A DNA stretch of 64,000 nucleotides from Planctomycetota bacterium (lineage in GTDB: Bacteria > Planctomycetota > B15-G4 > JADJEK01), in the NCBI GenBank assembly GCA_052034255.1, contig JBPOIU010000022.1, positions 7,354 through 71,353 of the forward strand, in the 5' to 3' direction. The first letter of the stretch is position 1; the number at the start of each line of letters is the position of its first letter. Of this stretch, positions 23,905 to 37,831 are shown piece after piece. Below the pieces are notes generated by a model. It worked only from the letters and a program-made list of their open reading frames with translations, did no database searches and had not been told where the DNA came from. Both the position numbers and the translations under genes were made by a program.

Positions 23905-25029
23905 TCAGATCGGCAGCTTCGCGTCCGGGTCGTAGCCGGTCAGCTCGACGTAGCCGCGACCGACCACGCGCCCATCGCGCTTCACGGTGATCGGGCCTTC
24001 GAAGTACTCGATGCCGTCGACCAACACGCTCGCGTTGATCGAACGCGGCGTCACCGCTTCGATCGCGAACGACTCGTCGCCGACGCGGACGTCGAACCCG
24101 GTCGGATAGCGCGAGCCGTCGCTTGGCGGCTTGCCCGTGATCGTGAACTCGTCGCCGCGCAGCGCCGCGCTGTGGCCCGTCGCGTCGACCCACGTTCCGC
24201 TGGCGTAATCCACCGCGCCATCCGCGCGCCGCAGCACGTAGAGCATCAGATCGCGCCCGTCCTCGAGCTGGATGCTGAACCAATCCCAACCCACTTGGCG
24301 CTTCGCGAGTTGCCCGCTCGAGAACTCGTGATCCATCCAGCTGGAGCCCACCACGGCGAACTCGTCCCCGCGCCAGCGCACGCTTCCTCGCGTCGCCATG
24401 CGCGTGAACGACGCGTATTGGCTCGCGGCCGAGCCGTCCTCCGACTTCTTCGAGTACCCGCGCTCCCCATGCAGCACGACGGGTCGAGTCGGCTGCGTGT
24501 CGAGCGCGAACGCTACCCCCCGCGTGTCGTCGCGCATCGTGAACGCGAAGCCGTCGCCCTGTAGACGCAACTCCCAACGCCCGCTGGTGCCCGCCGGAGC
24601 CTTCGACCATGCGATGACCGGATCGGGCTCGCGCGGAAAGCCGCCGAGGTCTCCGGATGCTCGCCACAGCGTTTCGCTGAACACGTGCTCACCGGTGCGC
24701 AGGTCCGTGAGCGCTGCGTGCCCCATGACCAGTGCGTTCGCCGCCCAACGCGAACCCTCGCGCGCGGGCTGCGGGTCGATCCCGATGCGGAACAGCGTGA
24801 ATTGGTATCCGAATCGCGCGACGCCGGGCGCGTCGGCCGCATCGAGATGCCCCGTGAAGTACCACCACTCGGTCTTCGAGGTGTCGTGCGCGCGATGATC
24901 GCGCGGGAACTCGAAGACGTGGTCGGGTGACGCTTGGACCCACGGCGAGGTCGTCGACTCCTCGGCCGCGAAGCCTCGCACCAGGAATGCGAGCCCGACC
25001 AGCGCGAGCACGCCCCATCGCTTCCGCAT
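23905..25029 (-). CDS. AttH/CrtC-like (hydroxyneurosporene-synthase family) lipocalin-fold protein, secreted
   Basis: Start is at MRKRWGVLALVGLAFLVRG, which is only the C-terminal third of a listed 1209-aa artefact ORF. HDTSKTEWWYFTGHL...YQFTLFRIG...WMDHEFSS matches the AttH family. Its start shares 1 nt with the permease stop. Confidence 0.65.
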   Translation of the reverse strand: MRKRWGVLALVGLAFLVRGFAAEESTTSPWVQASPDHVFEFPRDHRAHDTSKTEWWYFTGHLDAADAPGVARFGYQFTLFRIGIDPQPAREGSRWAANALVMGHAALTDLRTGEHVFSETLWRASGDLGGFPREPDPVIAWSKAPAGTSGRWELRLQGDGFAFTMRDDTRGVAFALDTQPTRPVVLHGERGYSKKSEDGSAASQYASFTRMATRGSVRWRGDEFAVVGSSWMDHEFSSGQLAKRQVGWDWFSIQLEDGRDLMLYVLRRADGAVDYASGTWVDATGHSAALRGDEFTITGKPPSDGSRYPTGFDVRVGDESFAIEAVTPRSINASVLVDGIEYFEGPITVKRDGRVVGRGYVELTGYDPDAKLPI

Positions 25030-27581
25030 CAGACGTCCTCCCGACACAGCTCGGTCGCTGGCGCTCGACTCGCGCGCAAGGCCGGCACGATCGCCGCGGC
25101 GACCGCGGCCGCCAGCACGGTCGCGACTTGCGCGAACACGTCGACGCCGGGCGCTTCGATCGGGATCGTCCAACCGAAGTACGCGCGGTTGATCGCGACC
25201 ACGAGCACCCACGCCAACGCGAGTCCGCCGATGGCTCCGGGCACGAGGCCGAGCAATGCCAGCGCCACGCCCTTGCCGACCCACACGACGAACAGTTGCG
25301 CGCGCGTCGCGCCGAGCGATCGCAGCAGCGCGATCTCGGCGCGGCGCTCGCGCGCCATCACGAGCAACGCGAGCGTCACGCCGGCGACCGCGACCAGCAA
25401 GCTCATGCCTTGCAAGACGCCCGTGATCACGAAGGTCTGATCGAAGATCCGCATGCCGGCCGCGCGCACCGCGGCGCTGCTCGCGAACACGAGGCCGACC
25501 GCGGCGAACTCGGTCTGGAACGCCTCGGTCGCACGCTCGGCGTCGGAACCGGGCACGAGGTAGATCGACAGATCCGTTGGTGGCCCAGGTCCGAACACGC
25601 GCGCGTACGTTTCGAGGTCGAGCACCGCGGCGCCGAACTCCGACGTGTAGTCGTAGAACACGCCCTCGATCGGGAACCGGAACGCGCCACGCGCGGTCGT
25701 CAGCGTGAACGTGTCGCCGACGCCCAAACGCAGCGTCCGCGCCAGCGGTTCGCCGAGCAGCACGCCGCCGGCCTTCACCGCCGCGAACGCGGCCGTCGCG
25801 TCGCCGCCCGCGCGATCGGCGAACAGCGGAAAGCGGTGCTCGCCGCCTTCCAACGCGATGTCGACTCCGCGCACGCGGATGCGTTCGCCGTCTTGCCAGA
25901 CCAACGTGTCGCGCAAGCGATCGACGGCGCGCACACCCGCGGTCGTGCGGATGCGCGTGAGCGCCGCGTCGTCGATGCCGCCGGATTCGAGCCCCGTGCG
26001 ATGCCCCATGCCGGCGACGTACACGTCCGCCGAAATCGTCGTTTCGATCCACGACGCGACCGTGCGGCGGAAGCTCGACACCATCAAGGTGATGCCGAGC
26101 ATCATGCTGACCGCGATCGACAACGCGGCGACGGCGAACGACGCGGTCAACAGCCGCGCGCGCAAGCTCTTCACGCCGAACCCGAAGCCGAACGTCGTGC
26201 CGCGCACCGAGCGACCCGCGAGCACGACGACGCCCGGCGCGACCAACGCCGCCGCGACGAGCACCGTGAGGCCCAGCAGGAACCCGGCCGGTCGCCAATG
26301 CTCCGCGACGAGCGCGTACGTCGAGCCGCCAACGAGCAGGACCGCGAACCCAAGCACCGTGCTGCGACCCGCGTGGCGCGCGACCTCTTCGTGCGCCTGC
26401 CACGCGGCGAGCAACGTGCGCGGATCGCGTCGCGCGACGTCGATCGCGGGCCACGCCGCGCCAAGCCAGGCGCCGCCGAAGCCGACGAGTCCCGCCAGCG
26501 GCCACAGCGTCCACGTCGCATGCACGGCGGTGATCTCTTCCAGCAGGTAGAGGTTCGTCATCGTCGCGCTGATCGCGCCGAGATTGCCGCGCGCGAGCGC
26601 GAAGCCGAGCGGCAATCCGATCGCGATGCCGATCGCCGCGAACGCGGTCGCTTCGCCGACGATGAGCGCGACGATCTGCGCACGCGTGGCGCCGAAGCTG
26701 CGCAACACCCCGAACTCGCGCCTTCGCCGCGACAACATCGCCTGCGTCGCGCTGGTCACGAGGAACAAGCCGGCGAACACCGCGACGAACGACAACGCTG
26801 TGAGGTTCACGCGGAACGCTTCGAGCAAGCCGTCCGCGCGCGCGCGCTGTTCCGCGGTGGTCCGCACTTCGACTCCGACCGGCATGCGCGCCGCGAGCCG
26901 CGCCCGAGCCACGTCCGCATCGGCTCCGGCGCGCAGCTTCACGTCGATGCGTGAAACCCGACCGTCGAGGCCGAACATCGCCTGCACCTGCGCCAGATCG
27001 GCGAATGCCGTGCGCGGTGACAGCAGCGGCGACTTGCGCGAGAAGTCGAACACGAGCCCGAGCCGCAGTCGCAACGTCCGCGAGCCGCTCCGCACGTCGA
27101 ACGCATCGCCGCGCCGCAACCCGAGGCGCTCCGCGAGCGGCGCCGACAGCGCGACGAATCCCGGTGTCGACAGCGGCTGCCCGAGCTCGAGCGCGGGACC
27201 GACGACGTCGCCGGCGTCCAGCGCGCCGCTGCCGACCGCAGCGAAATCCACGCCGAACAACTCGAGCGGGACGCGCTCGTCGCCGCGCGTCGCGATCGCG
27301 ATGACGCGCAGATGCGGCCGCGCGCCCGCTACGTCGACGTCGTCGAGCGCCAGCGCCCACGCGGCGTCGTCGAACGTCGCTTCCGCACCGGTGATCGAGA
27401 GTTCGCAATCGCCGGACACGGCGTCGACGGACGCTTGGAACGCGCCGACCGCGCTCGTGTTCAACAGGCGGATGCTCGTCACCGACGCGACGCCGAGCGC
27501 AACGCCGACGATGCACAAGGCCACTAGCGACCACGACGCGCGCAGCTGCGCGAGCTCGGTCCTCAGGAAGACGCGGAGCAC
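25029..27581 (-). CDS. ABC transporter permease with two FtsX domains (YbbP/MacB-like, ~850 aa)
   Basis: GTG start is at VLRVFLRTELAQLRAS. There are two TM bundles, each with an RRREFGVLRSFGATRAQI / RRAEIALLRSLGATRAQL FtsX motif, and large periplasmic loops. Confidence 0.75.
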   Translation of the reverse strand: MLRVFLRTELAQLRASWSLVALCIVGVALGVASVTSIRLLNTSAVGAFQASVDAVSGDCELSITGAEATFDDAAWALALDDVDVAGARPHLRVIAIATRGDERVPLELFGVDFAAVGSGALDAGDVVGPALELGQPLSTPGFVALSAPLAERLGLRRGDAFDVRSGSRTLRLRLGLVFDFSRKSPLLSPRTAFADLAQVQAMFGLDGRVSRIDVKLRAGADADVARARLAARMPVGVEVRTTAEQRARADGLLEAFRVNLTALSFVAVFAGLFLVTSATQAMLSRRRREFGVLRSFGATRAQIVALIVGEATAFAAIGIAIGLPLGFALARGNLGAISATMTNLYLLEEITAVHATWTLWPLAGLVGFGGAWLGAAWPAIDVARRDPRTLLAAWQAHEEVARHAGRSTVLGFAVLLVGGSTYALVAEHWRPAGFLLGLTVLVAAALVAPGVVVLAGRSVRGTTFGFGFGVKSLRARLLTASFAVAALSIAVSMMLGITLMVSSFRRTVASWIETTISADVYVAGMGHRTGLESGGIDDAALTRIRTTAGVRAVDRLRDTLVWQDGERIRVRGVDIALEGGEHRFPLFADRAGGDATAAFAAVKAGGVLLGEPLARTLRLGVGDTFTLTTARGAFRFPIEGVFYDYTSEFGAAVLDLETYARVFGPGPPTDLSIYLVPGSDAERATEAFQTEFAAVGLVFASSAAVRAAGMRIFDQTFVITGVLQGMSLLVAVAGVTLALLVMARERRAEIALLRSLGATRAQLFVVWVGKGVALALLGLVPGAIGGLALAWVLVVAINRAYFGWTIPIEAPGVDVFAQVATVLAAAVAAAIVPALRASRAPATELCREDV

Positions 27582-28264
27582 GGCGCCTCCAAGCGACCGG
27601 AATGCAGTGTCAGCACGCGATCGGCGCGGGCGGCCAACTCGTGGTCGTGCGTGACGAACAGCAGTGCGGCGCCGCTGTCCTTCACCAGCTCGAGCAGCAG
27701 ATCCATCACGATCGTCGCGTTGCGATCGTCGAGATTGCCGGTCGGTTCGTCGGCGAGCACGAGACGCGGCCGCATCACCAACGCGCGACACAGCGCGACG
27801 CGCTGCTGCTCGCCCCCGGACAACACTCCGGCGGGAGCGTCACGACGCGGCAGCAGACCGACGCGCTCGAGCAGCGTCAGCGCCCTGGCTCGCGCCTCGG
27901 ATCGCGAAGCTCCGGCGATCGACGCGGGCAACAGCACGTTCTCGAGCACCGACAGATGCGGCAGCAGATGGAAGAACTGGAACACGAGTCCGATCGCGTC
28001 GCGCCGCAAGCGCGTGCGCGTCGCGTCGGGCAATGCCGCGAGATCGACCCCTTCGAATCGCACGTGCCCACGCGTCGGCACGTCGATGCCGGCGGCCAAG
28101 TGGATCAGCGTGGACTTGCCGCTGCCGCTGCGCCCGAGCAACGCGACGACTTGACCGCGGCCGAGTCCGAAACTCACGTCGTCCAGCACGGACGTCGTGG
28201 CCGCCGCCGCCGCGAACTCGCGGGACACGTGTTCGAAACGCAGCAAGTCGTCGTTTGCGCCCAT
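27563..28264 (-). CDS. ABC transporter ATP-binding protein (LolD/MacB-type)
   Basis: Walker A is GRSGSGKST. Signature is LSGGEQQRVALCRAL. Walker B is LVLADEPTGNLD. H-loop is FVTHD. Confidence 0.85.
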   Translation of the reverse strand: MGANDDLLRFEHVSREFAAAAATTSVLDDVSFGLGRGQVVALLGRSGSGKSTLIHLAAGIDVPTRGHVRFEGVDLAALPDATRTRLRRDAIGLVFQFFHLLPHLSVLENVLLPASIAGASRSEARARALTLLERVGLLPRRDAPAGVLSGGEQQRVALCRALVMRPRLVLADEPTGNLDDRNATIVMDLLLELVKDSGAALLFVTHDHELAARADRVLTLHSGRLEAPCSASS

Positions 28265-28330
28265 GAGTTCCTCACCACCATCGGATCAACGACCACCCGC
28301 GGCTCGTCGGTGGACGTCGACCCGTCGCCA

Positions 28331-29065
28331 TCAGACCACGGCGAGCGCCTCGGCCAAGGCGTCGGTGATCGCGGCAAACCAGCGCACGCGAACGGCAGAG
28401 GCGCGCGCGACGACGGCTTGATTCAGTTCGAGCTCGATCCCCGCGTACGCCGCATCCGCGAACGAACGGCGCGTCGCCGTCGTGAGCCCATCCGACACGC
28501 CGCGATACGGTTGGTTGAAGCGCACGCGCACGTCCGGGAGTCGGCGCACCAACGCCGCGCGCCACGTCGTCGCGAGGCGCCGTTCGAACCGCCGCCGCGG
28601 GTCGAACAACAGTCCGATGTCGACGCGGCGCGTCACTCCATCGAGGATCGGCGTGAACGAATGACATGCGACGTGCACGACGCGGCCCGCGCGGCGGTGC
28701 GCGCGCGCGAGCTCCTCGGCGACGCGGTCCCGATGGGCGCGCCAATGAGCGTCGAACACGCGCCGTGCGAGCGCCGCCGGCAAGTCCTTCGTGAACTCCG
28801 ACCACAGCCGCGGATGGTGGGCGGACCGATTGGTGTCGACCACCAGGCGCGACACGGTGGTCGCGACCAACGGAGCGCCCAGTCGATCCCGCAGCATGCG
28901 CGCCAACACCAAGGCCCCGGGGTCATGCCCACGATGCGATTCCAACACCGCCGCGGCATGCGCGAAGCGTGCGCGCAACGCCGCCGGAATGCGATGACCC
29001 GCGTGTTCGCAACTGACGACCAGCGCCGGCGCGCCGCGCGGCGACCGGCGGGAAACGGTCGTCAT
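28331..29065 (-). CDS. N-formylglutamate amidohydrolase (FGase)-family protein
   Basis: Start is at MTTVSRRSP. ALVVSCEHAGHRIP...LVVDTNRS...HVACHSFTP matches the FGase/HutG-like fold motifs. ATGA-type overlap with the GCS2 stop. Confidence 0.65.
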   Translation of the reverse strand: MTTVSRRSPRGAPALVVSCEHAGHRIPAALRARFAHAAAVLESHRGHDPGALVLARMLRDRLGAPLVATTVSRLVVDTNRSAHHPRLWSEFTKDLPAALARRVFDAHWRAHRDRVAEELARAHRRAGRVVHVACHSFTPILDGVTRRVDIGLLFDPRRRFERRLATTWRAALVRRLPDVRVRFNQPYRGVSDGLTTATRRSFADAAYAGIELELNQAVVARASAVRVRWFAAITDALAEALAVV

Positions 29066-30303
29066 GCGCCGTACTGCGTGCCGTGTTCGAGGCATTGCGC
29101 GAGCTCGCCATAGACCGCGCGCAACGTGCCGAGCGTCGGGTCGAGTCCCGTCACGCGCACGATGCGGCGCGCCAGAGGTCCGCGCTCGAGGATCGTCTTC
29201 AGTGCGAGCCGGACGTCGAGATTCTCCGTGGTCTCGACGATCACCTGCTCGGCGATCTGGCGCCAGACGTCACCCGCTCGAATCCGTTGCGCCCGCACAC
29301 CGAACGCGGCGAGCCACTCGTGGTCCTCGATGATCGCCTCGTCGGCGTCGCGCGCGCAGCGCAAGAACTGACTCGCGAGTCGTTCGGTCGAGAACGAGCG
29401 CAGGTGCGCGTCGTCGAGCCAACGACCAGACAACATCGCCTTCAGCGTCTCCACGGTGATCCACGCGATCGCGATGTCCGCGACTGGTGTCTCCTGCACG
29501 TCGAGCACGCGGATCTCGAACGCATCGCGCACGAAGCGCGCGATGACGCCGCGCGAATTGAAGAACTCGTCCTTCAGCGTGCCTTCGGGATCGAACGGCG
29601 CGGCGTCGCGCCAGATGCGCTCCAGGATCTCCGTGCGGTAGGCCTGCGGCGTGAACACCGCTTCGGGCACGATTTGCCCCGTCGCCGATGGGATGCGCGC
29701 CTGGTTCTTGCGGTAGACCTCGAGCCGGTTGTCGAGCCAACCGGTGCCGCGACCGTCGACGAACGGCGAACTCGCCGCGAGCGCGGGCAACAACGGCAGC
29801 ACGACGCGCAACGCCGCGTGCAGGCGGCCGAACTCCACCGCGTCTCCGAACGGCAGATTGACGTGGCAGCTCTGCAGGTTCGACCAACCGTGCCCGCGGC
29901 AGTCGAAGATGCGGTCGTAGGTCGCGTAGACCTCGCCGCTTCCGTGCGGCCACAACTTCATCTGACGCGACGGGTCCATCCACGGATGCATCGCCGACGG
30001 CAACAGGCGGGCGTTGTGCGCATCCAGCAGGCGCTGCATCTTCGCGAGCGACGTGTTGAACGCGCCCGGCAACGGCAGCAGGCTCGGCGCGGGGCCGTTC
30101 GTCTTCAGCTCGATCACATGCAGCACGAGTTCGTTCGACCACGCGATCGGCCCGTCCTCGTGATCGCCACTGAGATTGCCCGCGGCGGCCTCGAGCAAAC
30201 GGTCGGCGATCGGCGCGACGTCCAGCGTGTCGCGGTCGACGATCATGTACTCGAGCTCGATGCCGAAGCCTTCGAACAGGTGCAGCGGACGACGATCGCT
30301 CAT
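29062..30303 (-). CDS. Carboxylate-amine ligase, GCS2 family (YbdK / gamma-glutamylcysteine-synthetase-2-like)
   Basis: Start is at MSDRRPLHLFEGFGIELEYMIVD. HVIELKTNGP...HPWMDPSR...GWSNLQSCHVNLPF is the GCS2 signature. The upstream 210 codons of the listed ORF are artefact. Confidence 0.7.
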   Translation of the reverse strand: MSDRRPLHLFEGFGIELEYMIVDRDTLDVAPIADRLLEAAAGNLSGDHEDGPIAWSNELVLHVIELKTNGPAPSLLPLPGAFNTSLAKMQRLLDAHNARLLPSAMHPWMDPSRQMKLWPHGSGEVYATYDRIFDCRGHGWSNLQSCHVNLPFGDAVEFGRLHAALRVVLPLLPALAASSPFVDGRGTGWLDNRLEVYRKNQARIPSATGQIVPEAVFTPQAYRTEILERIWRDAAPFDPEGTLKDEFFNSRGVIARFVRDAFEIRVLDVQETPVADIAIAWITVETLKAMLSGRWLDDAHLRSFSTERLASQFLRCARDADEAIIEDHEWLAAFGVRAQRIRAGDVWRQIAEQVIVETTENLDVRLALKTILERGPLARRIVRVTGLDPTLGTLRAVYGELAQCLEHGTQYGA

Positions 30304-31790
30304 GCGAAGCTCCGATTGCGACGACGCTCGACGCGCTGCATCAGCACGCGCATCACGCGCAGATACAGCTCGTCCTTCAGCACCGCGTCCTCGACTCCCG
30401 CATCGATGTTCGGGTTGTCGTTGACCTCGATGACGTAGACCTTGTCGCCGATCTGCTTCAGATCGACGCCGTACAGCCCGTCGCCGATCAGGTTCGCGGC
30501 CTTCAGCGCCGCTTTCACCACCCGCGTCGGCGCGTGCTCGATCGGCAGCGTTTCCGCGCGACCGAACGTCTTCTGCTGCGACGCGGCGTCGCGCTTGACG
30601 ATCTGCCAGTGGCGCGTCGCCATGAAGTAGCGACACGCGTACAGCGGCTGGCGATCGAGGATGCCGATGCGCCAGTCGAACTCGGTCGGCACGAACTCTT
30701 GCGCCACGATCAGGTCCGAGCGTTCGAGCCACTCGTCGATCAACGCCTCGAGCTGTTCGCGCGTGTCGGCCTTCTTCACGCCTTGCGAGAACGCGCTGTC
30801 CGGCTGCTTCAGGATGCACGGCAAGCCGAGCGTCTCGAGCACGCGCTGCTCGTTGCCGCGATGCACGATCATCGTCTTCGGATGCGGCACCTTGTTGCGC
30901 AGCAGCATCTCGGCGAGGAACACCTTGTTCGAGCACTTCAGGATCGAATCCGGATCGTCGATGACGACCAGTCCTTGCGCCTTCGCCTTCTCCGCGAACC
31001 GATAGGTGCGGTGATTCACGCTGGTGGTCTCGCGCAGGAACAGCGCCTCGAACTCACCGAGTCGCGCGAAGTCGTCGGGATCGATGAAGTCGACGTCGAA
31101 CCCGACGGCCTCACCGGCCTTTTGGAACTTCTTCAGCGCGCGCTCGTCGCTCGGCGAATCCTCGGCACTGGCGTCGCACAGGATCGCGAGGTCGTAGCGC
31201 GTGTCGGTGCGCTTGCGCGCGGTGCGATGCCGGCACGCGAAGTACTCGCGCGTGACGTCGAACAGGAACGGGCGGTGCTCGATCGGCACTTCGACGTAGC
31301 CGATGAGGCTGATGCCGGTCATGCCCCAGCGCCCGGACTTCGGATGGCGCTCGAACTCCGCGCGCAGCAGCGGCGCCGCGAATTGCCGAAACAGCGCGGC
31401 GGCGAGCTCGTCGTGGCGCTTCGCGACGTTGCGACCGAAGTAGACGCTGAGCGTGAACTGGTCCGACTGGATCGGCGTCAGGCTCTTCTGGATCAGATCT
31501 TCGAGTTCGCCCGACACGACGCGGATCACGGCCGGCGACTTCAGCTCTTGGATGGTCGCGACGCTCGGGCTCGGCTTGTGCCCGCGCGCTTCGGCGAGCA
31601 GCGACACGTAGTAGCCGGCCTTCTGATACCGATACGCGCGGCAGAGGTTGAACACGCGCGTTCGCGGCAACTCCACGTACGCGGGATCGGTCAGGTAGTC
31701 CTTCGACGCGACGACGCGCGTGTCCGGCACGTCGAGCGGCCAATCCGAAGGATCGCGGACGACGATGAGATTCGGCGGACGAGCGTTCAT
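30300..31790 (-). CDS. RimK-like ATP-grasp amidoligase with ~200-aa N-terminal pre-ATP-grasp domain
   Basis: Start is at MNARPPNLIVV. The C-terminal half (LVVIDDPDSILKCSNKVFLAEML...PCILKQPDSAFSQGV...LIVAQEFVPTEFDWRIGILD...YGVDLKQIGDKVYVIEVNDNP) matches the RimK/GshB ATP-grasp signature. ATGA overlaps on both sides. Confidence 0.7.
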   Translation of the reverse strand: MNARPPNLIVVRDPSDWPLDVPDTRVVASKDYLTDPAYVELPRTRVFNLCRAYRYQKAGYYVSLLAEARGHKPSPSVATIQELKSPAVIRVVSGELEDLIQKSLTPIQSDQFTLSVYFGRNVAKRHDELAAALFRQFAAPLLRAEFERHPKSGRWGMTGISLIGYVEVPIEHRPFLFDVTREYFACRHRTARKRTDTRYDLAILCDASAEDSPSDERALKKFQKAGEAVGFDVDFIDPDDFARLGEFEALFLRETTSVNHRTYRFAEKAKAQGLVVIDDPDSILKCSNKVFLAEMLLRNKVPHPKTMIVHRGNEQRVLETLGLPCILKQPDSAFSQGVKKADTREQLEALIDEWLERSDLIVAQEFVPTEFDWRIGILDRQPLYACRYFMATRHWQIVKRDAASQQKTFGRAETLPIEHAPTRVVKAALKAANLIGDGLYGVDLKQIGDKVYVIEVNDNPNIDAGVEDAVLKDELYLRVMRVLMQRVERRRNRSFA

Positions 31791-32527
31791 GACGCGCGCG
31801 AGTTCTCCCGCTTGGGACGTACGACCAAGAGCACGGCGTCGTACGTCAGTACGCCGAGCAGGATCGATCCGATGACGCGATCGATGTCGACTTCGTAGTG
31901 ATGCGCTTTGCGCCGCATCGGGTTCTCGAGATACGGATCGGCCACGTGGACGACGCGATCGTCCGCGTCGTAGCCGGCGAGCACGACGAAGTGGCCCTGC
32001 GGCTCGCCGCGGATGTCGTCGGGCTCGTCGTCGTCGCCGTGCTCGCGCTTCGCGCGGTAGAGGAACGTCGACGACAGGCCGGTCAGGATCGGTTGCTTCT
32101 TCGTCAGGTACTTGCGGATCAGCGCCGGCGTCAGATCGACCAGTCGCAGGTCGCCGCCGCGATCGAGGAACTCGAGGTAGGCGCGGGTCGCGGCTTGGAG
32201 ACGCCGACCGCTCTTCACCGCGCGCTGGCGCATCAGCCGTTCGGCGATGTCGACGCGTTCGGTCGAGAACCACGTCGGATCGAAGACTTGCAGGTTGTAC
32301 GTGTACAGGATCGCTTCGAAGCCGCGCTCGAGCGCGTCGTTCGCGAGCAGCACCGCGAGCGTGCCGCCGGAGTCGAGCGTCCGCACGTCCCGGATCACGT
32401 CCTCGAGCTCGAGCTCGAGTCCGTAGTAGCGGTAGACCGCGTGCAAACACGTCGGCCCGCACGTGCGATCGTCGGGTTGCGGCAGGATGTCGAGGAGCAG
32501 GCGTTCGGCCATGAGGGGCGCGATCAT
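31787..32527 (-). CDS. Papain-like / C39-like cysteine peptidase-domain protein (ATP-grasp associated)
   Basis: Start is at MIAPLMAERLL. DRTCGPTCLHAVYRYYG is a putative catalytic Cys. GHFVVLAGYDADDRVVHVADP is the His..Asp. The same CxPTC / GHxxVLxGxD..DP pattern appears in the protein at 52442..53485. Confidence 0.5.
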   Translation of the reverse strand: MIAPLMAERLLLDILPQPDDRTCGPTCLHAVYRYYGLELELEDVIRDVRTLDSGGTLAVLLANDALERGFEAILYTYNLQVFDPTWFSTERVDIAERLMRQRAVKSGRRLQAATRAYLEFLDRGGDLRLVDLTPALIRKYLTKKQPILTGLSSTFLYRAKREHGDDDEPDDIRGEPQGHFVVLAGYDADDRVVHVADPYLENPMRRKAHHYEVDIDRVIGSILLGVLTYDAVLLVVRPKRENSRAS

Positions 32528-32583
32528 AGGCGCCGAGGCGCGCTCGTCGGTGCGTACGACCGACAGTTCCCACTGGGCCGCGA

Positions 32584-33534
32584 TCAACGCACGCGGGGAT
32601 CGTGGCGGCCGGAGTCGCGCCAAACTTCGTCGACCACGCGCCGGATCGCCGCCGTCGCGGCGGCCCGCTCGGCCGGCGCGGTCATCCGGCGTGCCGTCCG
32701 CCACCATTCCTCGGTGGCCCGCCAGGCCGTCATCAGCTTCGCGAGCACGAAACCGAACGGGCCGTACGCACGCTGGTAATAACGGGCCCGGTTCTTGTGC
32801 CATTCGAGCGCGAAGTCGCCGTAGCGCCGCGTCGACGCGCCGCCGTGATGCACGACACGCGCACCGGCCAGGAACCAGATCGAGAAGCCGCGCGCCACCA
32901 AGCGCCGGCACAACTCGACGTCGTTGAAGAACAGGAACAGGTCGGCGTCCAGCAAGCCGACTTCCGCGAGCGCGCTCTTACGCAGCATCAGCGCCGCGCC
33001 CGGCGGCTGGTCCACGCGACGGGTCGACAGGTGATCGAAGTCGGAGCAGAAGTACTGGTCGATGACGCGACGCAACGGCCAACGCTTGCCGAACCAGGTG
33101 TCGAAGCCGACGGCGACGGCGAGCGTCGGAAAGCGCATGCACGCGCGTTGGATCGAGCCGTCGACGTTGAACAACTGCGCGCCAACCGCGCCCACCCACG
33201 GATCGTCCTCGAGGAAGCGCACGAGCCGCGTCGGCGCGTCGGGCGCGACTTCGGTGTCGCTGTTCAACAGGAACACGAAACGGCCGCGCGCGGCACGGAT
33301 CCCGACGTTGTTGCCTTCGGCGTAGCCGACGTTGCGCGGGTTCTCGATCAGACGGACCTCGGGAAAGCGCTCGCGGACGCACGCCACGCTGTCGTCGGAC
33401 GAGGCGTTGTCGACGACGATGACCTCGCGCGACAATTCCGGATCGACCGCACGCACGCATTCGAGGCAGCGCACCAGCAGGTCGCGCGTGTTCCACGACA
33501 GGATCACGATCGACAGCAGCGGCGGAGCGCTCAT
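32584..33534 (-). CDS. Glycosyltransferase family 2
   Basis: Start is at MSAPPLLSIVILSWNTRDLLVRCL. VIVVDNASSDDS...LLNSDTEV. ATGA overlap with the upstream GT2. Confidence 0.75.
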   Translation of the reverse strand: MSAPPLLSIVILSWNTRDLLVRCLECVRAVDPELSREVIVVDNASSDDSVACVRERFPEVRLIENPRNVGYAEGNNVGIRAARGRFVFLLNSDTEVAPDAPTRLVRFLEDDPWVGAVGAQLFNVDGSIQRACMRFPTLAVAVGFDTWFGKRWPLRRVIDQYFCSDFDHLSTRRVDQPPGAALMLRKSALAEVGLLDADLFLFFNDVELCRRLVARGFSIWFLAGARVVHHGGASTRRYGDFALEWHKNRARYYQRAYGPFGFVLAKLMTAWRATEEWWRTARRMTAPAERAAATAAIRRVVDEVWRDSGRHDPRVR

Positions 33535-34700
33535 CCGAGAGCCTCGAACGCGATCGGGCCGGTCGAGTGCACCGACTTCGCGAACGTCACGTACGCGAGC
33601 GGCGCCAGCGTCGCGACGTCGAGCACGCGCACGAACCAGGTCGTGGCCTCGAGCGCGTTCCACGCGCGCTGCGGGAACTCGAGGCGCGTTCCGGTACCGA
33701 CGTGTCCGCCGCAGAACAGGAACGCCGGATCGGTCGCCAACTCCATGACCCAGGAAGTCGTGTGCGCCGGCAAATCGATCGCGAGTGGCTCCGTGCGCGG
33801 TCCGAGGTCGACGGGTTCGAGGAAGCGCCAACCTTGCCCGCGCGGGCCGTGCTTCGCGGCGTAGGCCTCGAGGCGATCGAACGCCCACGCCCCGAGCTTG
33901 CCGTAGTGCTTGCGGTAGTAGCGCCCGCGCGAGACGTGATAGCGGCGCTGGACTTCTTCGCGCAGCGTCCGCGCGCTCTGATCGAAGAAGTGGATCATGC
34001 GCGCCGCCGGCGCCAACACCACGCGCGCGCCGGCCGCGCGCACGCGCCGACAAAGATCCGCGTCCTCGAAGTAGAACGGGAACTCCTCGTCGAACGGCCC
34101 GAGTCGGCGCGCGAGATCGGCGCGCAGCATCATCGCGAAGCCCGAGATCATGCGGCAGTCGAATGGCTCACGCGCGAGCCACGCGTGCAGGAAGCGGCGC
34201 GAGCGTTGGAACGACGCGCGCTTCGCGACGCTCGGATGCACGCGTCCGAGCGATTCGGCGACGTGCAGCGACAACGTCGGCAGATCGTTCTGCGGCAGCA
34301 GGATGAACCGATCGGGGTCGAGGTAGCCGCGGGGACCGACCGCGCCGATGCGCGGATCCGAGCGCAGCACGTCGACGAACGCCGCGAGCGCGCCCTCGAG
34401 CACCAACACGTCGGGGTTCGACAACAGCACGAACTCGGCGTCGATCGACTTCATGCCGAGGTTCATGCCCGGGCCGTAGCCATCGTTGCGATCGTGGTAG
34501 ATCACGTCGACGCCGAGTTCGCGCAGCGGATCGAGCTCCGCGTGCTGATCGACCGGCGAGCGATTGTCGACGACGACGATCTGCAACGAGCCCGGCGCGC
34601 CGTCGCGCCCGGGGAACGACTGCGCGCGCAACGACCTCACCGCCGACGCCGTCAGGCGGCCGGAGTTGAAGTTCACGATCACCACGCCGACGTCGTACAT
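33531..34700 (-). CDS. Glycosyltransferase family 2
   Basis: MYDVGVVIVNFNSGRLTASAV...IVVVDNRSPVDQ...LLSNPDVLV...YFEDADLCRR. Confidence 0.75.
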   Translation of the reverse strand: MYDVGVVIVNFNSGRLTASAVRSLRAQSFPGRDGAPGSLQIVVVDNRSPVDQHAELDPLRELGVDVIYHDRNDGYGPGMNLGMKSIDAEFVLLSNPDVLVLEGALAAFVDVLRSDPRIGAVGPRGYLDPDRFILLPQNDLPTLSLHVAESLGRVHPSVAKRASFQRSRRFLHAWLAREPFDCRMISGFAMMLRADLARRLGPFDEEFPFYFEDADLCRRVRAAGARVVLAPAARMIHFFDQSARTLREEVQRRYHVSRGRYYRKHYGKLGAWAFDRLEAYAAKHGPRGQGWRFLEPVDLGPRTEPLAIDLPAHTTSWVMELATDPAFLFCGGHVGTGTRLEFPQRAWNALEATTWFVRVLDVATLAPLAYVTFAKSVHSTGPIAFEALG

Positions 34701-34722
34701 CGCAAAGCCGCGCAGATCGGGA

Positions 34723-35937
34723 TCAACGAATGTCTTCGAAACGCCACTCGTGATTCAGGGAGATCACGCCGACGTGTCCGGCTTGCGGCTGGATCACGAG
34801 CGGCAGTTCATTCATGCGGTGGTCGTAGATGTGCAGGCAGTTCTCGTCGTAGAGGTACCCGATCACCGTGAACTCGCCGTCGTTCAGGTCGACGCGCGGC
34901 ACCGTGATGAACGCGCGATGGCGGCCGCCCGGCGTCTGCGGGACCTTGACGCCGTCGTGCCCCGACGACGCCGCCGCGATCAACACGTTGTCCGAGCGCC
35001 AGATCGCGAAGCCGCAGTTGATCGGCGCAGTCCAGCCCTCGGGCACGTGGTATTCGAGGCGCATCACGAGCTTCTGGCCCGTGCGCGTCAGCGACACCGC
35101 TTCACCGCGTTCGTCGAGCAGCGTGACCGCGTCGAGCTTCGGCGGATTGCGTTCGGGCGAGATCGGCACGCCGCCGACCGCGAGCTCGGGCTCGTGCAGC
35201 AGGCTGCGTTCGTAGTTCGCGTAATTCGCGGTGACGGTCAGCGGATCGCCGCGCTGCTCGATCTTGCCCTGCTTGACCCAGATGACGTCGTCGCAGACCT
35301 GGCGGACGTCGTACAGCGAGTGCGAACAGAAGATGATCGTCTTGCCGCGCTTGCGGAAGTCGAAGATGCGGTCGATGCACTTCTTTTGGAAGTGCAAGTC
35401 GCCGACCGCCAGGATCTCGTCGATGATCAGTACGTCGGGGTCGATCGCCGTCGCGACCGAGAAGCCGAGGCGCATGATCATGCCCGACGAATACGTGCGG
35501 ACCGGCTGATCGATGAAGTGGCCGAGCTCCGTGAAGTCGATGATCTGATCGAGTCGCGCGCGCGTCTCCGCGCGCGAGAAGCCCATCACCGACGCGTTCA
35601 GGAAGATGTTGTCGCGGCCGGTGAACTCGGAATGGAAACCGGTGCCGAGTTCGAGCAGCGACGCGACCTTGCCGGCCAACCGGAACGAGCCGACGGTCGG
35701 CAGCGTGGTGCCCGCGAGGATCTTCAACAGCGTGGATTTGCCCGCACCGTTGCTGCCGATGATGCCGAGCGCCTTGCCGTGCGGGACTTCGAGGTCGACG
35801 CCCTGGAGCGCCCACACTTCCTTGTGGAAGCGCTTCTTGCCGAACGACAGACCCTCGCGGATGCGTTGGAACGGCGAGTCGTAGATCTTGTACTTCTTGC
35901 CGACGCCGCGCACGACCACGGCCAGATCAGAGCTCAT
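34723..35937 (-). CDS. wzt: Polysaccharide/O-antigen ABC exporter ATP-binding protein (Wzt/KpsT-type) with C-terminal carbohydrate-binding-like domain
   Basis: GIIGSNGAGKSTLLK, LSGGMIMRLGFSVAT and LIIDEILAVGD form the NBD. A ~150-aa C-terminal beta-rich extension follows. Confidence 0.85.
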   Translation of the reverse strand: MSSDLAVVVRGVGKKYKIYDSPFQRIREGLSFGKKRFHKEVWALQGVDLEVPHGKALGIIGSNGAGKSTLLKILAGTTLPTVGSFRLAGKVASLLELGTGFHSEFTGRDNIFLNASVMGFSRAETRARLDQIIDFTELGHFIDQPVRTYSSGMIMRLGFSVATAIDPDVLIIDEILAVGDLHFQKKCIDRIFDFRKRGKTIIFCSHSLYDVRQVCDDVIWVKQGKIEQRGDPLTVTANYANYERSLLHEPELAVGGVPISPERNPPKLDAVTLLDERGEAVSLTRTGQKLVMRLEYHVPEGWTAPINCGFAIWRSDNVLIAAASSGHDGVKVPQTPGGRHRAFITVPRVDLNDGEFTVIGYLYDENCLHIYDHRMNELPLVIQPQAGHVGVISLNHEWRFEDIR

Positions 35938-36853
35938 CGGCGAACCTCCCCTTGGTGGCGAGGAAGAACGCGTGGCCGGGGATGAACGTGAGCAGCGCCC
36001 ACAGCGCCATGACGAGCAGAGCGGTCCACGGCACGGCCGCGGTCTCGAACGTCAACGCGGCGCGATAGATCTCGACCAAGTGGAAGAACGGATTCACCTG
36101 CATCAGCCACGACCACTGCGCGAGGTTCTCCGCTTTGGTGATCAACTGCGCGGGGTAGACGATCGGCGTGGTGAAGAACCACAGCATCAGGAACAGTTGG
36201 ACGATCTGCGACGTATCGCGGATGAAGATGTTGAGCGCGCCCAGGAACAACCCGAGCCCGGTCGTGAACACGACCTGCAGCACGAGCGCCGGCAGGATCA
36301 GCCAGAAGTGCTGCGGCAGGCTCCCGAGCACGATCAGGCGCACGACGACGTACACGGCGAGCGCGATCAGGAAGTAGATCGCGTTGACGGCGACGGCGTA
36401 CAGCGGCAGCAGCTGCGACGGGAATGCGATCTTCTTGACCAAGTTGCCGTTCTCGAGCACGACGCCGGTGCAGCGCACGATCGACTCGGAGAACGAGATC
36501 CACGGCAGCAAGCCGGCCATGATGTAGAAGGCCGCGTGCGAGCGATCGCTGAGCACTGCGGCGTCGCCGCTGCCGCCTTCGAAGCGCTGCTGCAAGACCT
36601 CGACGAACACGAGGTAGTACACGCCGAACAGGATCAACGGGTTCAGCAACGGCCACAGGCGGCCGAGCAACGAGCCCTCGTAACGGGCTTTGAGGTCGCG
36701 CCATACGAACGACGTCACCAGCTCGCGGTGGCGCCAGGCGATGAACGGCAGCGACAGCGACTCGGGGAGCTTCACGATGGAATGGTGCTCGGAAAACGGG
36801 CGAGGGACGAACGCGAAGGGCGAGCAGACTACCAGCGTCCGCGTGCGCGTCAT
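35927..36853 (-). CDS. wzm: ABC-2 type polysaccharide exporter permease (Wzm/KpsM-type)
   Basis: 6-TM ABC-2 pattern: LLGRLWPLLNPLILFGVYYLVF...LLPWISF...IYFLIALAVYVV. An 11-nt overlap with the ATPase gene. Confidence 0.8.
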   Translation of the reverse strand: MTRTRTLVVCSPFAFVPRPFSEHHSIVKLPESLSLPFIAWRHRELVTSFVWRDLKARYEGSLLGRLWPLLNPLILFGVYYLVFVEVLQQRFEGGSGDAAVLSDRSHAAFYIMAGLLPWISFSESIVRCTGVVLENGNLVKKIAFPSQLLPLYAVAVNAIYFLIALAVYVVVRLIVLGSLPQHFWLILPALVLQVVFTTGLGLFLGALNIFIRDTSQIVQLFLMLWFFTTPIVYPAQLITKAENLAQWSWLMQVNPFFHLVEIYRAALTFETAAVPWTALLVMALWALLTFIPGHAFFLATKGRFADEL

Positions 36854-36979: not shown

Positions 36980-37831
36980 ATGCTGAACCAGGACCAGCCC
37001 CTCGCCGATGTCGTGTTCGTCGCGTTCGACACCGAAACCACCGGGACCGGCGCCGGAACGCGATTGCTCGAGATCGCCGGATCGCGCTTCGTGGGCGACC
37101 GGTTGGAGGGGACGTTCCAAACGCTGATCGACCCGGAGCAACCCATCCCGCCGGAGTCGACGGCGATCCACAACATCGATGACGCGATGGTCCGCGGTCA
37201 GGACAAGGCGCCGGAAGCCTTGCGCAAGTTCCTGGAGTTCGCCCAGGGAGCAGTTCTGATCGCGCACAACGCCAGCTTCGACGCATCGATGGTCGGCCTG
37301 GAACTCGGCCGGGCGAAATTGCCCGCGCCGTCCATGCCGATCCTCGATTCGCTGAAGGCGGCGCGCCGCTCGTACCCCGGGACATCGCATTCGCTGGACA
37401 CGTTGATCGAGACGGCCGGATTGCCGCGCCAGGACGCACGTCACCGTGCGCTCGGCGATGCCGAATTGGTGCGTCATCTCGTTCGACGTTTGACCGAGAT
37501 CCTCGGCGGCGACCGCACGCCGCTGGCGAAGTTCGTGGACTGCGCGGGAGGGATCGACACCTTCGAGAAATACCTGCCCGTCGAGCCCGCGCTGCCGTTC
37601 GCGTTGAAACTGCTGTCCGACGCCGCGCGCTCGCAGACGAAGGTGAACTTGCACCTCGACACCGGCGGCGCGAAGACGCTGCAGAAGATCGTCTCGCCGC
37701 GCCTGCTGTATTCCTGGTACGGCACCGACGTCCTCGAGGCGTATTGCCCCGATGAAGGGATCGTGAAGACCTTCCGCTTGGACAAGATCACGCGCGTCGA
37801 GAAGGGCGCGTCGAGCGGGTTCTTGTTTTAG
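36980..37831 (+). CDS. DEDDh 3'-5' exonuclease (DnaQ-like) with ~110-aa C-terminal extension
   Basis: Start is at MLNQDQPL. Exo I is VAFDTETTG. Exo II is LIAHNASFDASM. Exo III is HRALGDAELV. The listed ORF upstream is artefact. Confidence 0.75.
   Translation: MLNQDQPLADVVFVAFDTETTGTGAGTRLLEIAGSRFVGDRLEGTFQTLIDPEQPIPPESTAIHNIDDAMVRGQDKAPEALRKFLEFAQGAVLIAHNASFDASMVGLELGRAKLPAPSMPILDSLKAARRSYPGTSHSLDTLIETAGLPRQDARHRALGDAELVRHLVRRLTEILGGDRTPLAKFVDCAGGIDTFEKYLPVEPALPFALKLLSDAARSQTKVNLHLDTGGAKTLQKIVSPRLLYSWYGTDVLEAYCPDEGIVKTFRLDKITRVEKGASSGFLF

Follow-up and report, generated by a model that had tools for sequence, protein, structure and literature searches.

A four-gene amidoligase cassette lies on the minus strand of a 64,000-nucleotide (nt) stretch of the Planctomycetota contig JBPOIU010000022.1, hereafter the window, at positions 28331-32527. 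Gene A (31787..32527, 246 amino acids (aa)) encodes a stand-alone C39-like cysteine peptidase of the papain fold. Gene B (30300..31790, 496 aa) encodes an RLAN domain (residues ~1-190) and, joined to it, a complete ATP-grasp ligase of the RimK type (~200-470), and gene C (29062..30303, 413 aa) a GCS2/YbdK-type carboxylate-amine ligase. Gene D (28331..29065, 244 aa) encodes an accessory amidohydrolase of the FGase family, which has the N-formylglutamate-amidohydrolase fold. A preliminary description of this DNA had the four genes chained by ATGA overlaps, and the sequence bears this out: the A/B, B/C and C/D junctions are each a 4-nt ATGA stop/start overlap. The G+C content is evenly high over the whole window (~65-72%), and near-identical proteins are labelled as belonging to Planctomycetota metagenome-assembled genomes.

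Two gene starts differ from the longest readings. We prefer position 29065 as the start of gene D over the longest open reading frame (ORF) start at 29095, because it creates the ATGA overlap, fits the N-termini of homologues and agrees with an independent gene call in a relative. Gene A probably begins at its second ATG, at 32512, which would give a protein of 241 aa, because MAERLLLDILPQ fits the family consensus MxxRLxLxILPQPDD. No signal peptide or convincing membrane segment is predicted in A, B, C or D, and the sole hydrophobic stretch in A corresponds to a helix-strand element in the core of its structure model. A search for riboswitches and other RNA motifs with Rfam gave zero matches across the whole window. 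Scans for transcription signals were uninformative: no promoter-like sites were detected, and terminator-like sites fell inside genes only and were rarer than in shuffled sequence.

Domain content and active sites

The four proteins carry the domains proposed for them in the preliminary description, each above its Pfam gathering score and with catalytic residues invariant in homologues. Protein A matches Peptidase_C39_2 (2.9e-10) and Peptidase_C39 (5.9e-6), both above the gathering score, and contains the two motifs quoted earlier, RTCGPTCLHA and GHFVVLAGYD. Q17, C23, H179 and D197 are kept in at least 97% of 66 homologues, and the six residues from Gln to Cys reproduce the papain spacing. These features place A among the C39 and C39_2 peptidases (papain fold, clan CA). 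Its structural neighbours are C39 and deubiquitinase-like enzymes, and the best matches are true peptidases.

Protein B joins RLAN (PF14401; 1e-45, residues 30-177) to a RimK ATP-grasp domain (PF08443; 2e-9, residues 287-463), which puts a name to the extra N-terminal domain of ~200 aa noticed earlier on the ligase. The ATP-grasp motifs (N288-K289, K328, Q364-E365, D372-R374, D443 and E455-N457) are invariant among 14 sequences and align with their counterparts in LysX and RimK. They supply the ATP- and Mg-binding signature of ATP-grasp ligases: the beta-strand Lys, QE, D-x-R and E-x-N. B groups with the RimK/LysX clade, and its nearest solved relatives are LysX/ArgX and RimK. It is not RimK proper, scoring 22.8 bits against the NCBIfam RimK equivalog NF007764 (cut-off 331). 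The score is 63.5 bits against the rimK_fam subfamily model TIGR00768 (cut-off 143.4) and 64.4 bits against the LysX model (cut-off 275.6).

The RLAN domain appears to be a reduced, probably inactive ATP-grasp-like module. Its AlphaFold2 (AF2) model resembles a reduced ATP-grasp fold, and all 50 of the 50 Foldseek matches listed are ATP-grasp enzymes, at E-values of ~1e-3 and TM scores of ~0.5. RLAN has no E-x-N motif and is shorter than a full ATP-grasp domain. We rejected the idea that it is a sequence-detectable copy of the ATP-grasp half of B: comparing the N-terminal and C-terminal halves with hhalign gave a probability of 1% and no sequence-level signal of duplication. A profile search with RLAN matched no solved structure by sequence. 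Because sequence-level support is absent, the likeness to ATP-grasp enzymes is a property of the AF2 model.

Proteins C and D also look catalytically intact. C matches GCS2 (PF04107) at 1.8e-27 and 96.9 bits (cut-off 21), covering positions 1-277 of the 291 in the profile. It carries an N-terminal G-x-E-x-E metal-binding motif in which G14, E16 and E18 are invariant; E16, E18, H62, E65 and many more residues are invariant or nearly so in homologues. The best GCS2 subfamily score is 56.9 bits, with TIGR02050 (cut-off 176.4), and a profile search against the Protein Data Bank (PDB) returned only plant glutamate-cysteine ligase (GCL; E 0.036). D matches FGase (PF05013; 1e-27, 98.2 bits against a cut-off of 28.9), with E20, H21, H44, D48, H131, H135, E161, E211 and E213 invariant in homologues. 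Its closest solved relative is Atu2144 (PDB 2odf, function unknown), found by profile search at 4.8e-36. Against the HutG equivalog TIGR02017, D reaches 33.9 bits over residues 20-100 only, below the cut-off of 278.75.

No NCBIfam model reaches its curated cut-off for any of A-D, those for RimK, GshB, GshA and HutG included. Because they score below all equivalog cut-offs, the proteins are distinct subfamilies and not RimK, GshA/B or HutG themselves.

These scores make ordinary synthesis of glutathione or a close thiol analogue, with C as GshA and B as GshB, very unlikely. The family assignments do allow the idea: gamma-Glu-Cys ligases of the cyanobacterial, plant and YbdK types belong to GCS2, GshB is itself an ATP-grasp enzyme, and there are weak matches to gshA and gshB models. 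B, however, belongs to the RimK/LysX clade and scores 19.8-43.9 bits against glutathione-synthase models with cut-offs of 272-408 (22 bits against 299 for the GshB equivalog TIGR01380). C likewise gives at most 56.9 bits (32.6-56.9) against gshA/YbdK cut-offs of 176-437, and the EgtA cut-off is also out of reach. Two amidohydrolase-type genes and an extra domain of 190 residues are foreign to gshAB. The earlier judgement that the product is not glutathione itself thus agrees with the model scores.

Conservation and gene order

The cassette is a recurrent unit in bacterial genomes. We scanned one genome per species for relatives of B, confirmed at least 595 and kept the best 80 loci; B homologues number more than 8000 in protein clusters. 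The 80 loci span at least nine phyla, among them Planctomycetota, Desulfobacterota, Nitrospirota, Verrucomicrobiota, Gamma- and Betaproteobacteria, Acidobacteriota, Bacteroidota, Fibrobacterota, Myxococcota and others. Gene order was counted by tblastn with the window proteins, over the testable loci among the 80. A lies directly upstream of B at 70 of 78 loci (69 found by script plus L040, whose overlap the script missed), C lies directly downstream of B at 66 of 69, and D follows C at 34 of 60 (~57%). Neighbouring genes of the cassette usually overlap or are separated by short gaps. The mean identity of B is 56% between phyla and 60-64% within the better-sampled ones.

Chance adjacency, which the preliminary description named as a refuting outcome, is ruled out by the same order recurring across the 80 loci: A-B-C is kept in ~90% or more of testable loci, over at least nine phyla. 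The four-gene unit that it described needs one correction. The conserved core is A-B-C, and D is accessory and dispensable, because it stands after C at just 34 of 60 loci and is missing from L081, a close relative with an 86% identical B. No common gene replaces D where it is missing, since what then follows C is a mixture of unrelated genes (GH57, a sigma-54 activator, MscK, an oxidoreductase and anthranilate synthase). Both hallmarks of such cassettes are nonetheless present in the window, namely RLAN fused N-terminally to a RimK-like ATP-grasp domain and its placement beside GCS2, a papain-like peptidase and, optionally, FGase.

No further partner gene travels with the cassette. All-vs-all clustering of 4630 ORFs from the loci found no family beyond A-D in more than five of them, and a Pfam census of 116 immediate neighbour genes was heterogeneous, with minor recurrences only. 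Among ORFs of 20-90 aa lying up to 700 nt from the cassette, the only conserved ones were shadow frames from near-identical genomes. No carrier, tag or substrate gene is conserved beside the cassette in the 80 loci.

Three other roles were considered. Synthesis of a peptide that is made on the ribosome and modified post-translationally (RiPP), of the graspetide kind in which a precursor peptide gene adjoins an MdnB/C-type ATP-grasp gene, does not fit: there is no conserved small ORF, the gaps flanking the cassette in the window are just 56 and 66 nt, and B falls in the RimK/LysX clade. Bacteriocin processing by a C39 peptidase of the PCAT type does not fit A, which stands alone and has no conserved ABC exporter or precursor ORF at the 80 loci. 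Anti-phage defence was dismissed as PADLOC gave no matches for A-D and no relatives were found on viral contigs.

A few neighbours recur at low frequency. GATase_4 genes, which encode class-II glutamine-amidotransferase-like Ntn hydrolases, adjoin the cassette on the opposite strand at four loci from three phyla (L044, L052, L056 and L058), and may provide an additional amide hydrolase for the system. MFS transporters lie beside it at three loci from two phyla. One clade of Planctomycetota, represented by five loci (L024, L032, L062, L035 and L038), encodes an alpha/beta-hydrolase (S9/S33 peptidase-like) of 380 to ~650 aa upstream of B. No C39 gene was detected at three of these five, which suggests that the alpha/beta-hydrolase possibly replaces A there.

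Variants of the cassette

Distant members show which associations are flexible. We drew these from a plasmid collection, at 34-46% identity. Legionella adelaidensis has B-C-D, annotated as a RimK family protein, a glutamate-cysteine ligase family protein and an N-formylglutamate amidohydrolase. On replicon p1 of Azospirillum brasilense Sp7, a cultured bacterium open to genetic work (L086, 5772-8479), a gene for a 408-aa fusion of GNAT to DUF3335, a C39-like domain, abuts the B homologue on its upstream side. This homologue is a 44% identical RLAN-RimK protein, and the locus has no GCS2 gene. GNAT-DUF3335 fusions have been noted before, with Iyer et al. 2009 cited (PMC10318531). These variants show that B was tied to papain-like proteins before it was tied to GCS2, and that GNAT can stand in for the second ligase.

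Several carriers are in culture. They include Legionella, Thiobacillus thioparus DSM 505, Nitrosomonas communis Nm44, Blastopirellula marina DSM 3645 and Tautonia. In Pseudomonas aeruginosa (L085, 6938-8527), a stand-alone RLAN-RimK gene, 46% identical, lies beside an Orn/Lys/Arg-decarboxylase-like gene and near glutamate/aspartate ABC transporter genes and ggt. It is probably PA1345, given the gene order ggt-aatPMQJ-pagP. PMC12802237 gives PA1345 a putative CpxR box and lists it as a hypothetical ATP-binding protein.

A model for the cassette

We tentatively read the cassette as a self-contained cytoplasmic module that builds and trims a short glutamate-based peptide from free amino acids, and give this reading slightly less than an even chance. 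Two different ATP-dependent ligases, B and C, stand together with two amidohydrolase-type enzymes, A and D, and all four active sites are intact by sequence. The proteins look active and cytoplasmic, and the genes appear to be inherited or transferred as a unit without a conserved substrate gene. A small peptide is favoured as the product because no tag or carrier gene accompanies the cassette, because the occasional extra neighbours (GATase_4 and MFS) have functions of a small-molecule type, and because GCS2 and FGase enzymes with known activity use small molecules. The Azospirillum pairing also counts in its favour, as B is again found with a second ligase-type domain (GNAT) and a papain-like domain.

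In the proposed pathway, C would turn a carboxylate (most likely the gamma-carboxyl of Glu) into an acyl-phosphate and couple it to an amine, giving a gamma-glutamyl-X dipeptide. B would next activate the free alpha-carboxyl end and add one or more residues, most likely Glu. Precedents for such an extension exist: GshB extends gamma-Glu-Cys, and RimK, MptN and CofF act on Glu-terminated substrates. D would hydrolyse an amide whose amine part is glutamate (N-acyl-Glu type), either undoing the step of B or recycling the product. A would cleave the peptide or transfer it via a Cys thioester, and so set its length or level. RLAN may hold the substrate or organise an oligomer.

A bolder version of this scheme seems doubtful to us. 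It takes the product to be a glutamyl peptide of low molecular weight and wide distribution (a thiol, an osmolyte or oligo-Glu) or a non-ribosomal peptide tag made by two sequential ligases, with A as a transpeptidase resembling phytochelatin synthase and RLAN as a degenerate ATP-grasp domain that holds the acidic chain. If true, thousands of genomes from Planctomycetota, Desulfobulbales, Nitrospirota, Legionella and other groups would share an undescribed pathway of primary metabolism or modification.

Several points weigh against a small-peptide module. We infer every chemical step from family membership, and none of A-D reaches an equivalog cut-off that would name its substrate. Enzymes of the RimK clade often act on the C-termini of proteins or cofactors, as RimK does on S6 and LysX on LysW. 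The ~56% identity of B between phyla would fit a conserved macromolecular substrate too, and the nearest structural relatives of A cleave peptides or proteins after Gly-Gly. Finally, P. aeruginosa, Aeromonas and Tistrella carry a more distant RLAN-RimK homologue by itself, so B would not depend strictly on the product of C.

Some of the same observations feed the main rival explanation, that the cassette writes and erases a C-terminal modification on a protein or peptide. B would add Glu to the C-terminus of a protein encoded elsewhere, as RimK does on S6; C would join a Glu side-chain carboxylate to an amine, as PafA, a Pup ligase of the GCS fold, does; A would process or de-conjugate the product; and D would remove terminal Glu. 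We consider this possible, if on the unlikely side. The solved enzymes nearest to B, LysX/ArgX and RimK, do work on protein C-termini, conservation between phyla is very high with RLAN included, RLAN could serve as a protein-docking module, and C39 and deubiquitinase-like enzymes are the structural neighbours of A. Iyer et al. 2009 reportedly put forward essentially this idea as a peptide-tag hypothesis. Yet the 80 loci conserve no candidate substrate, tag or carrier gene and no small ORF, and GCS2 and FGase members of known activity take small molecules. Nor does any of the four proteins have a conserved acidic C-terminal tail, a potential self-substrate.

A further alternative keeps the small-molecule substrates and changes the role of A. 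We infer a trimming or release role for the peptidases; papain-like enzymes paired with ATP-grasp ligases are amide-forming transacylases in some pathways (PMC7183216). As a transpeptidase or transacylase, A would take the product onto its catalytic Cys and pass it to an amine, polymerising it as phytochelatin synthase does or attaching it elsewhere. No partner is tied to B as tightly as A, with overlapping genes and adjacency at 70 of 78 loci, and the B homologue of Azospirillum is likewise coupled to a C39-like domain, one of a different family that is fused to GNAT. Proven transacylases of this sort include those of the closthioamide (CtaD/CtaG) and butirosin (BtrJ/BtrH) pathways (PMC7183216). 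CtaG and BtrH, however, depend on thioesters of a carrier protein and the cassette encodes none, the best structural matches of A are true peptidases, and hydrolysis and transfer are inseparable by sequence alone. We regard this role for A as improbable.

Whichever enzymology applies, the outcome would be either a new small peptide at work in bacterial physiology, comparable in class to glutathione or N-acetylglutaminylglutamine amide (NAGGN), or a new chemistry by which bacteria tag proteins, of the RimK or Pup class. The cassette is a compact orphan pathway of four genes, widespread, directly testable and present in culturable bacteria. It would not surprise a specialist.

Flanking genes

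The cassette sits in a tightly packed run of minus-strand genes, and Pfam matches confirm the neighbours named in the preliminary description. Upstream lie Wzm (35927-36853), Wzt (34723-35937) and two GT2 genes (33531-34700 and 32584-33534), the second 56 nt from gene A. Downstream, an ABC ATPase gene (27563-28264) starts 66 nt past the end of gene D and is followed by a MacB/FtsX permease (25029-27581) and an AttH/CrtC-lipocalin protein (23905-25029). From 23905 to 36853 there are thus eleven co-directional genes that either overlap or lie no more than 66 nt apart, and no gap holds a terminator-like site. The genes from Wzm to AttH may form one long transcription unit here, though the modules are unrelated elsewhere. 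A DnaQ/RNase_T-like exonuclease gene (37000-37831, plus strand) is divergent from Wzm; its homologue in L081 matches RNase_T and, weakly, a WYL domain.

Close relatives show that this setting is local synteny. L082, a 94% identical relative, has the same gene order, flanks included. L081 keeps both flanks and lacks D, so that its ABC ATPase gene comes 32 nt after the GCS2 gene. In L081 an opposite-strand gene with Ser/Thr-kinase and FGE-sulfatase domains also splits the GT2 genes from A. The absence of D and the extra kinase/FGE gene (L081 6663-9224 and 11497-12764) are recent gain or loss events within otherwise syntenic DNA. The Wzm/Wzt/GT2 and ABC/AttH families were not found beside the cassette at any of the 80 other loci. 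The flanks therefore fall outside the system, being shared with L081 and L082 only.

This distribution bears on the idea that all eleven genes form one pathway, in which the cassette decorates a polysaccharide exported by Wzm/Wzt/GT2 with amino acids. The close packing of the genes between 36853 and 23905, the lack of terminator-like sites between them and the same flanks in L081 and L082 would suit it. The flank families are, however, absent beside the cassette at the 80 other loci, the opposite-strand kinase gene of L081 comes between the GT2 genes and A, and all four cassette proteins look cytoplasmic and soluble. The comparative data already largely refute such a role, and we find it scarcely credible.

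Relation to known systems

Parts of the cassette resemble several characterised systems. RimK, the S6 poly-alpha-L-glutamate ligase of E. coli and Pseudomonas, shares its clade and catalytic motifs with B, and both enzymes probably extend a C-terminal carboxylate. B differs in its score (22.8 bits against 331), in carrying RLAN and in being coupled to GCS2 and a C39-like peptidase; the partners of RimK proper are RimA/RimB. In the amino-group carrier system LysW/LysX and the Pup system PafA/Dop, a ligase of the RimK clade (LysX) or the GCS fold (PafA) acts on a small protein at its C-terminal Glu, and both are models for C-terminal tagging. No LysW-like or Pup-like gene occurs near the cassette, and B scores 64.4 bits against 275.6 for LysX. 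CfmP fimbrial modification involves a TupA-like ATP-grasp enzyme and is not relevant.

Other systems pair an amide ligase with a papain-like enzyme. Glutathionylspermidine synthetase/amidase makes an amide bond with an ATP-dependent ligase and cleaves that bond with a papain-like (CHAP) amidase, and so sets the level of a small peptide conjugate. It is one bifunctional protein with a ligase of another family, and we draw an analogy to the cassette only, with no claim of homology. GshA/GshB with the phytochelatin-synthase-like peptidase Alr0975 is a second comparison. The cassette scores fall far under the gshA/gshB cut-offs, its A is closer to the C39 than to the C83 family, and it has an FGase partner. 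In butirosin synthesis a Glu is later removed. That Glu is added by an ATP-grasp enzyme, and both the butirosin (BtrJ/BtrH/BtrG) and closthioamide (CtaD/CtaG) pathways resemble the cassette in combining an ATP-grasp ligase with a C39/BtrH-like papain-fold enzyme (PMC7183216). Both are templated by carrier proteins and use ATP-grasp enzymes of other clades, whereas the cassette is without a carrier protein.

The closest counterpart is a class predicted from genomes. Iyer, Abhiman, Burroughs and Aravind (Mol Biosyst 2009; cited in PMC10318531 and PMC13419641) reportedly described the RLAN domain (PF14401) and predicted amidoligase contexts of this kind. The preliminary description had placed the operon in a predicted but uncharacterised amidoligase class, and the set of RLAN-RimK, GCS2, papain-like peptidase and optional FGase found here is that of such a class. 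A full-text literature search found no characterised member and no published substrate or product. Domain set and neighbourhood are, by that account, the same in the window, and nothing essential differs. The cassette is an ordinary member of an already-predicted, biochemically unsolved class, and the class itself is not new. What our analysis adds to it is quantified co-conservation, with an A-B-C core and D at ~57%, an ATP-grasp-like model of RLAN and variants in cultured bacteria.

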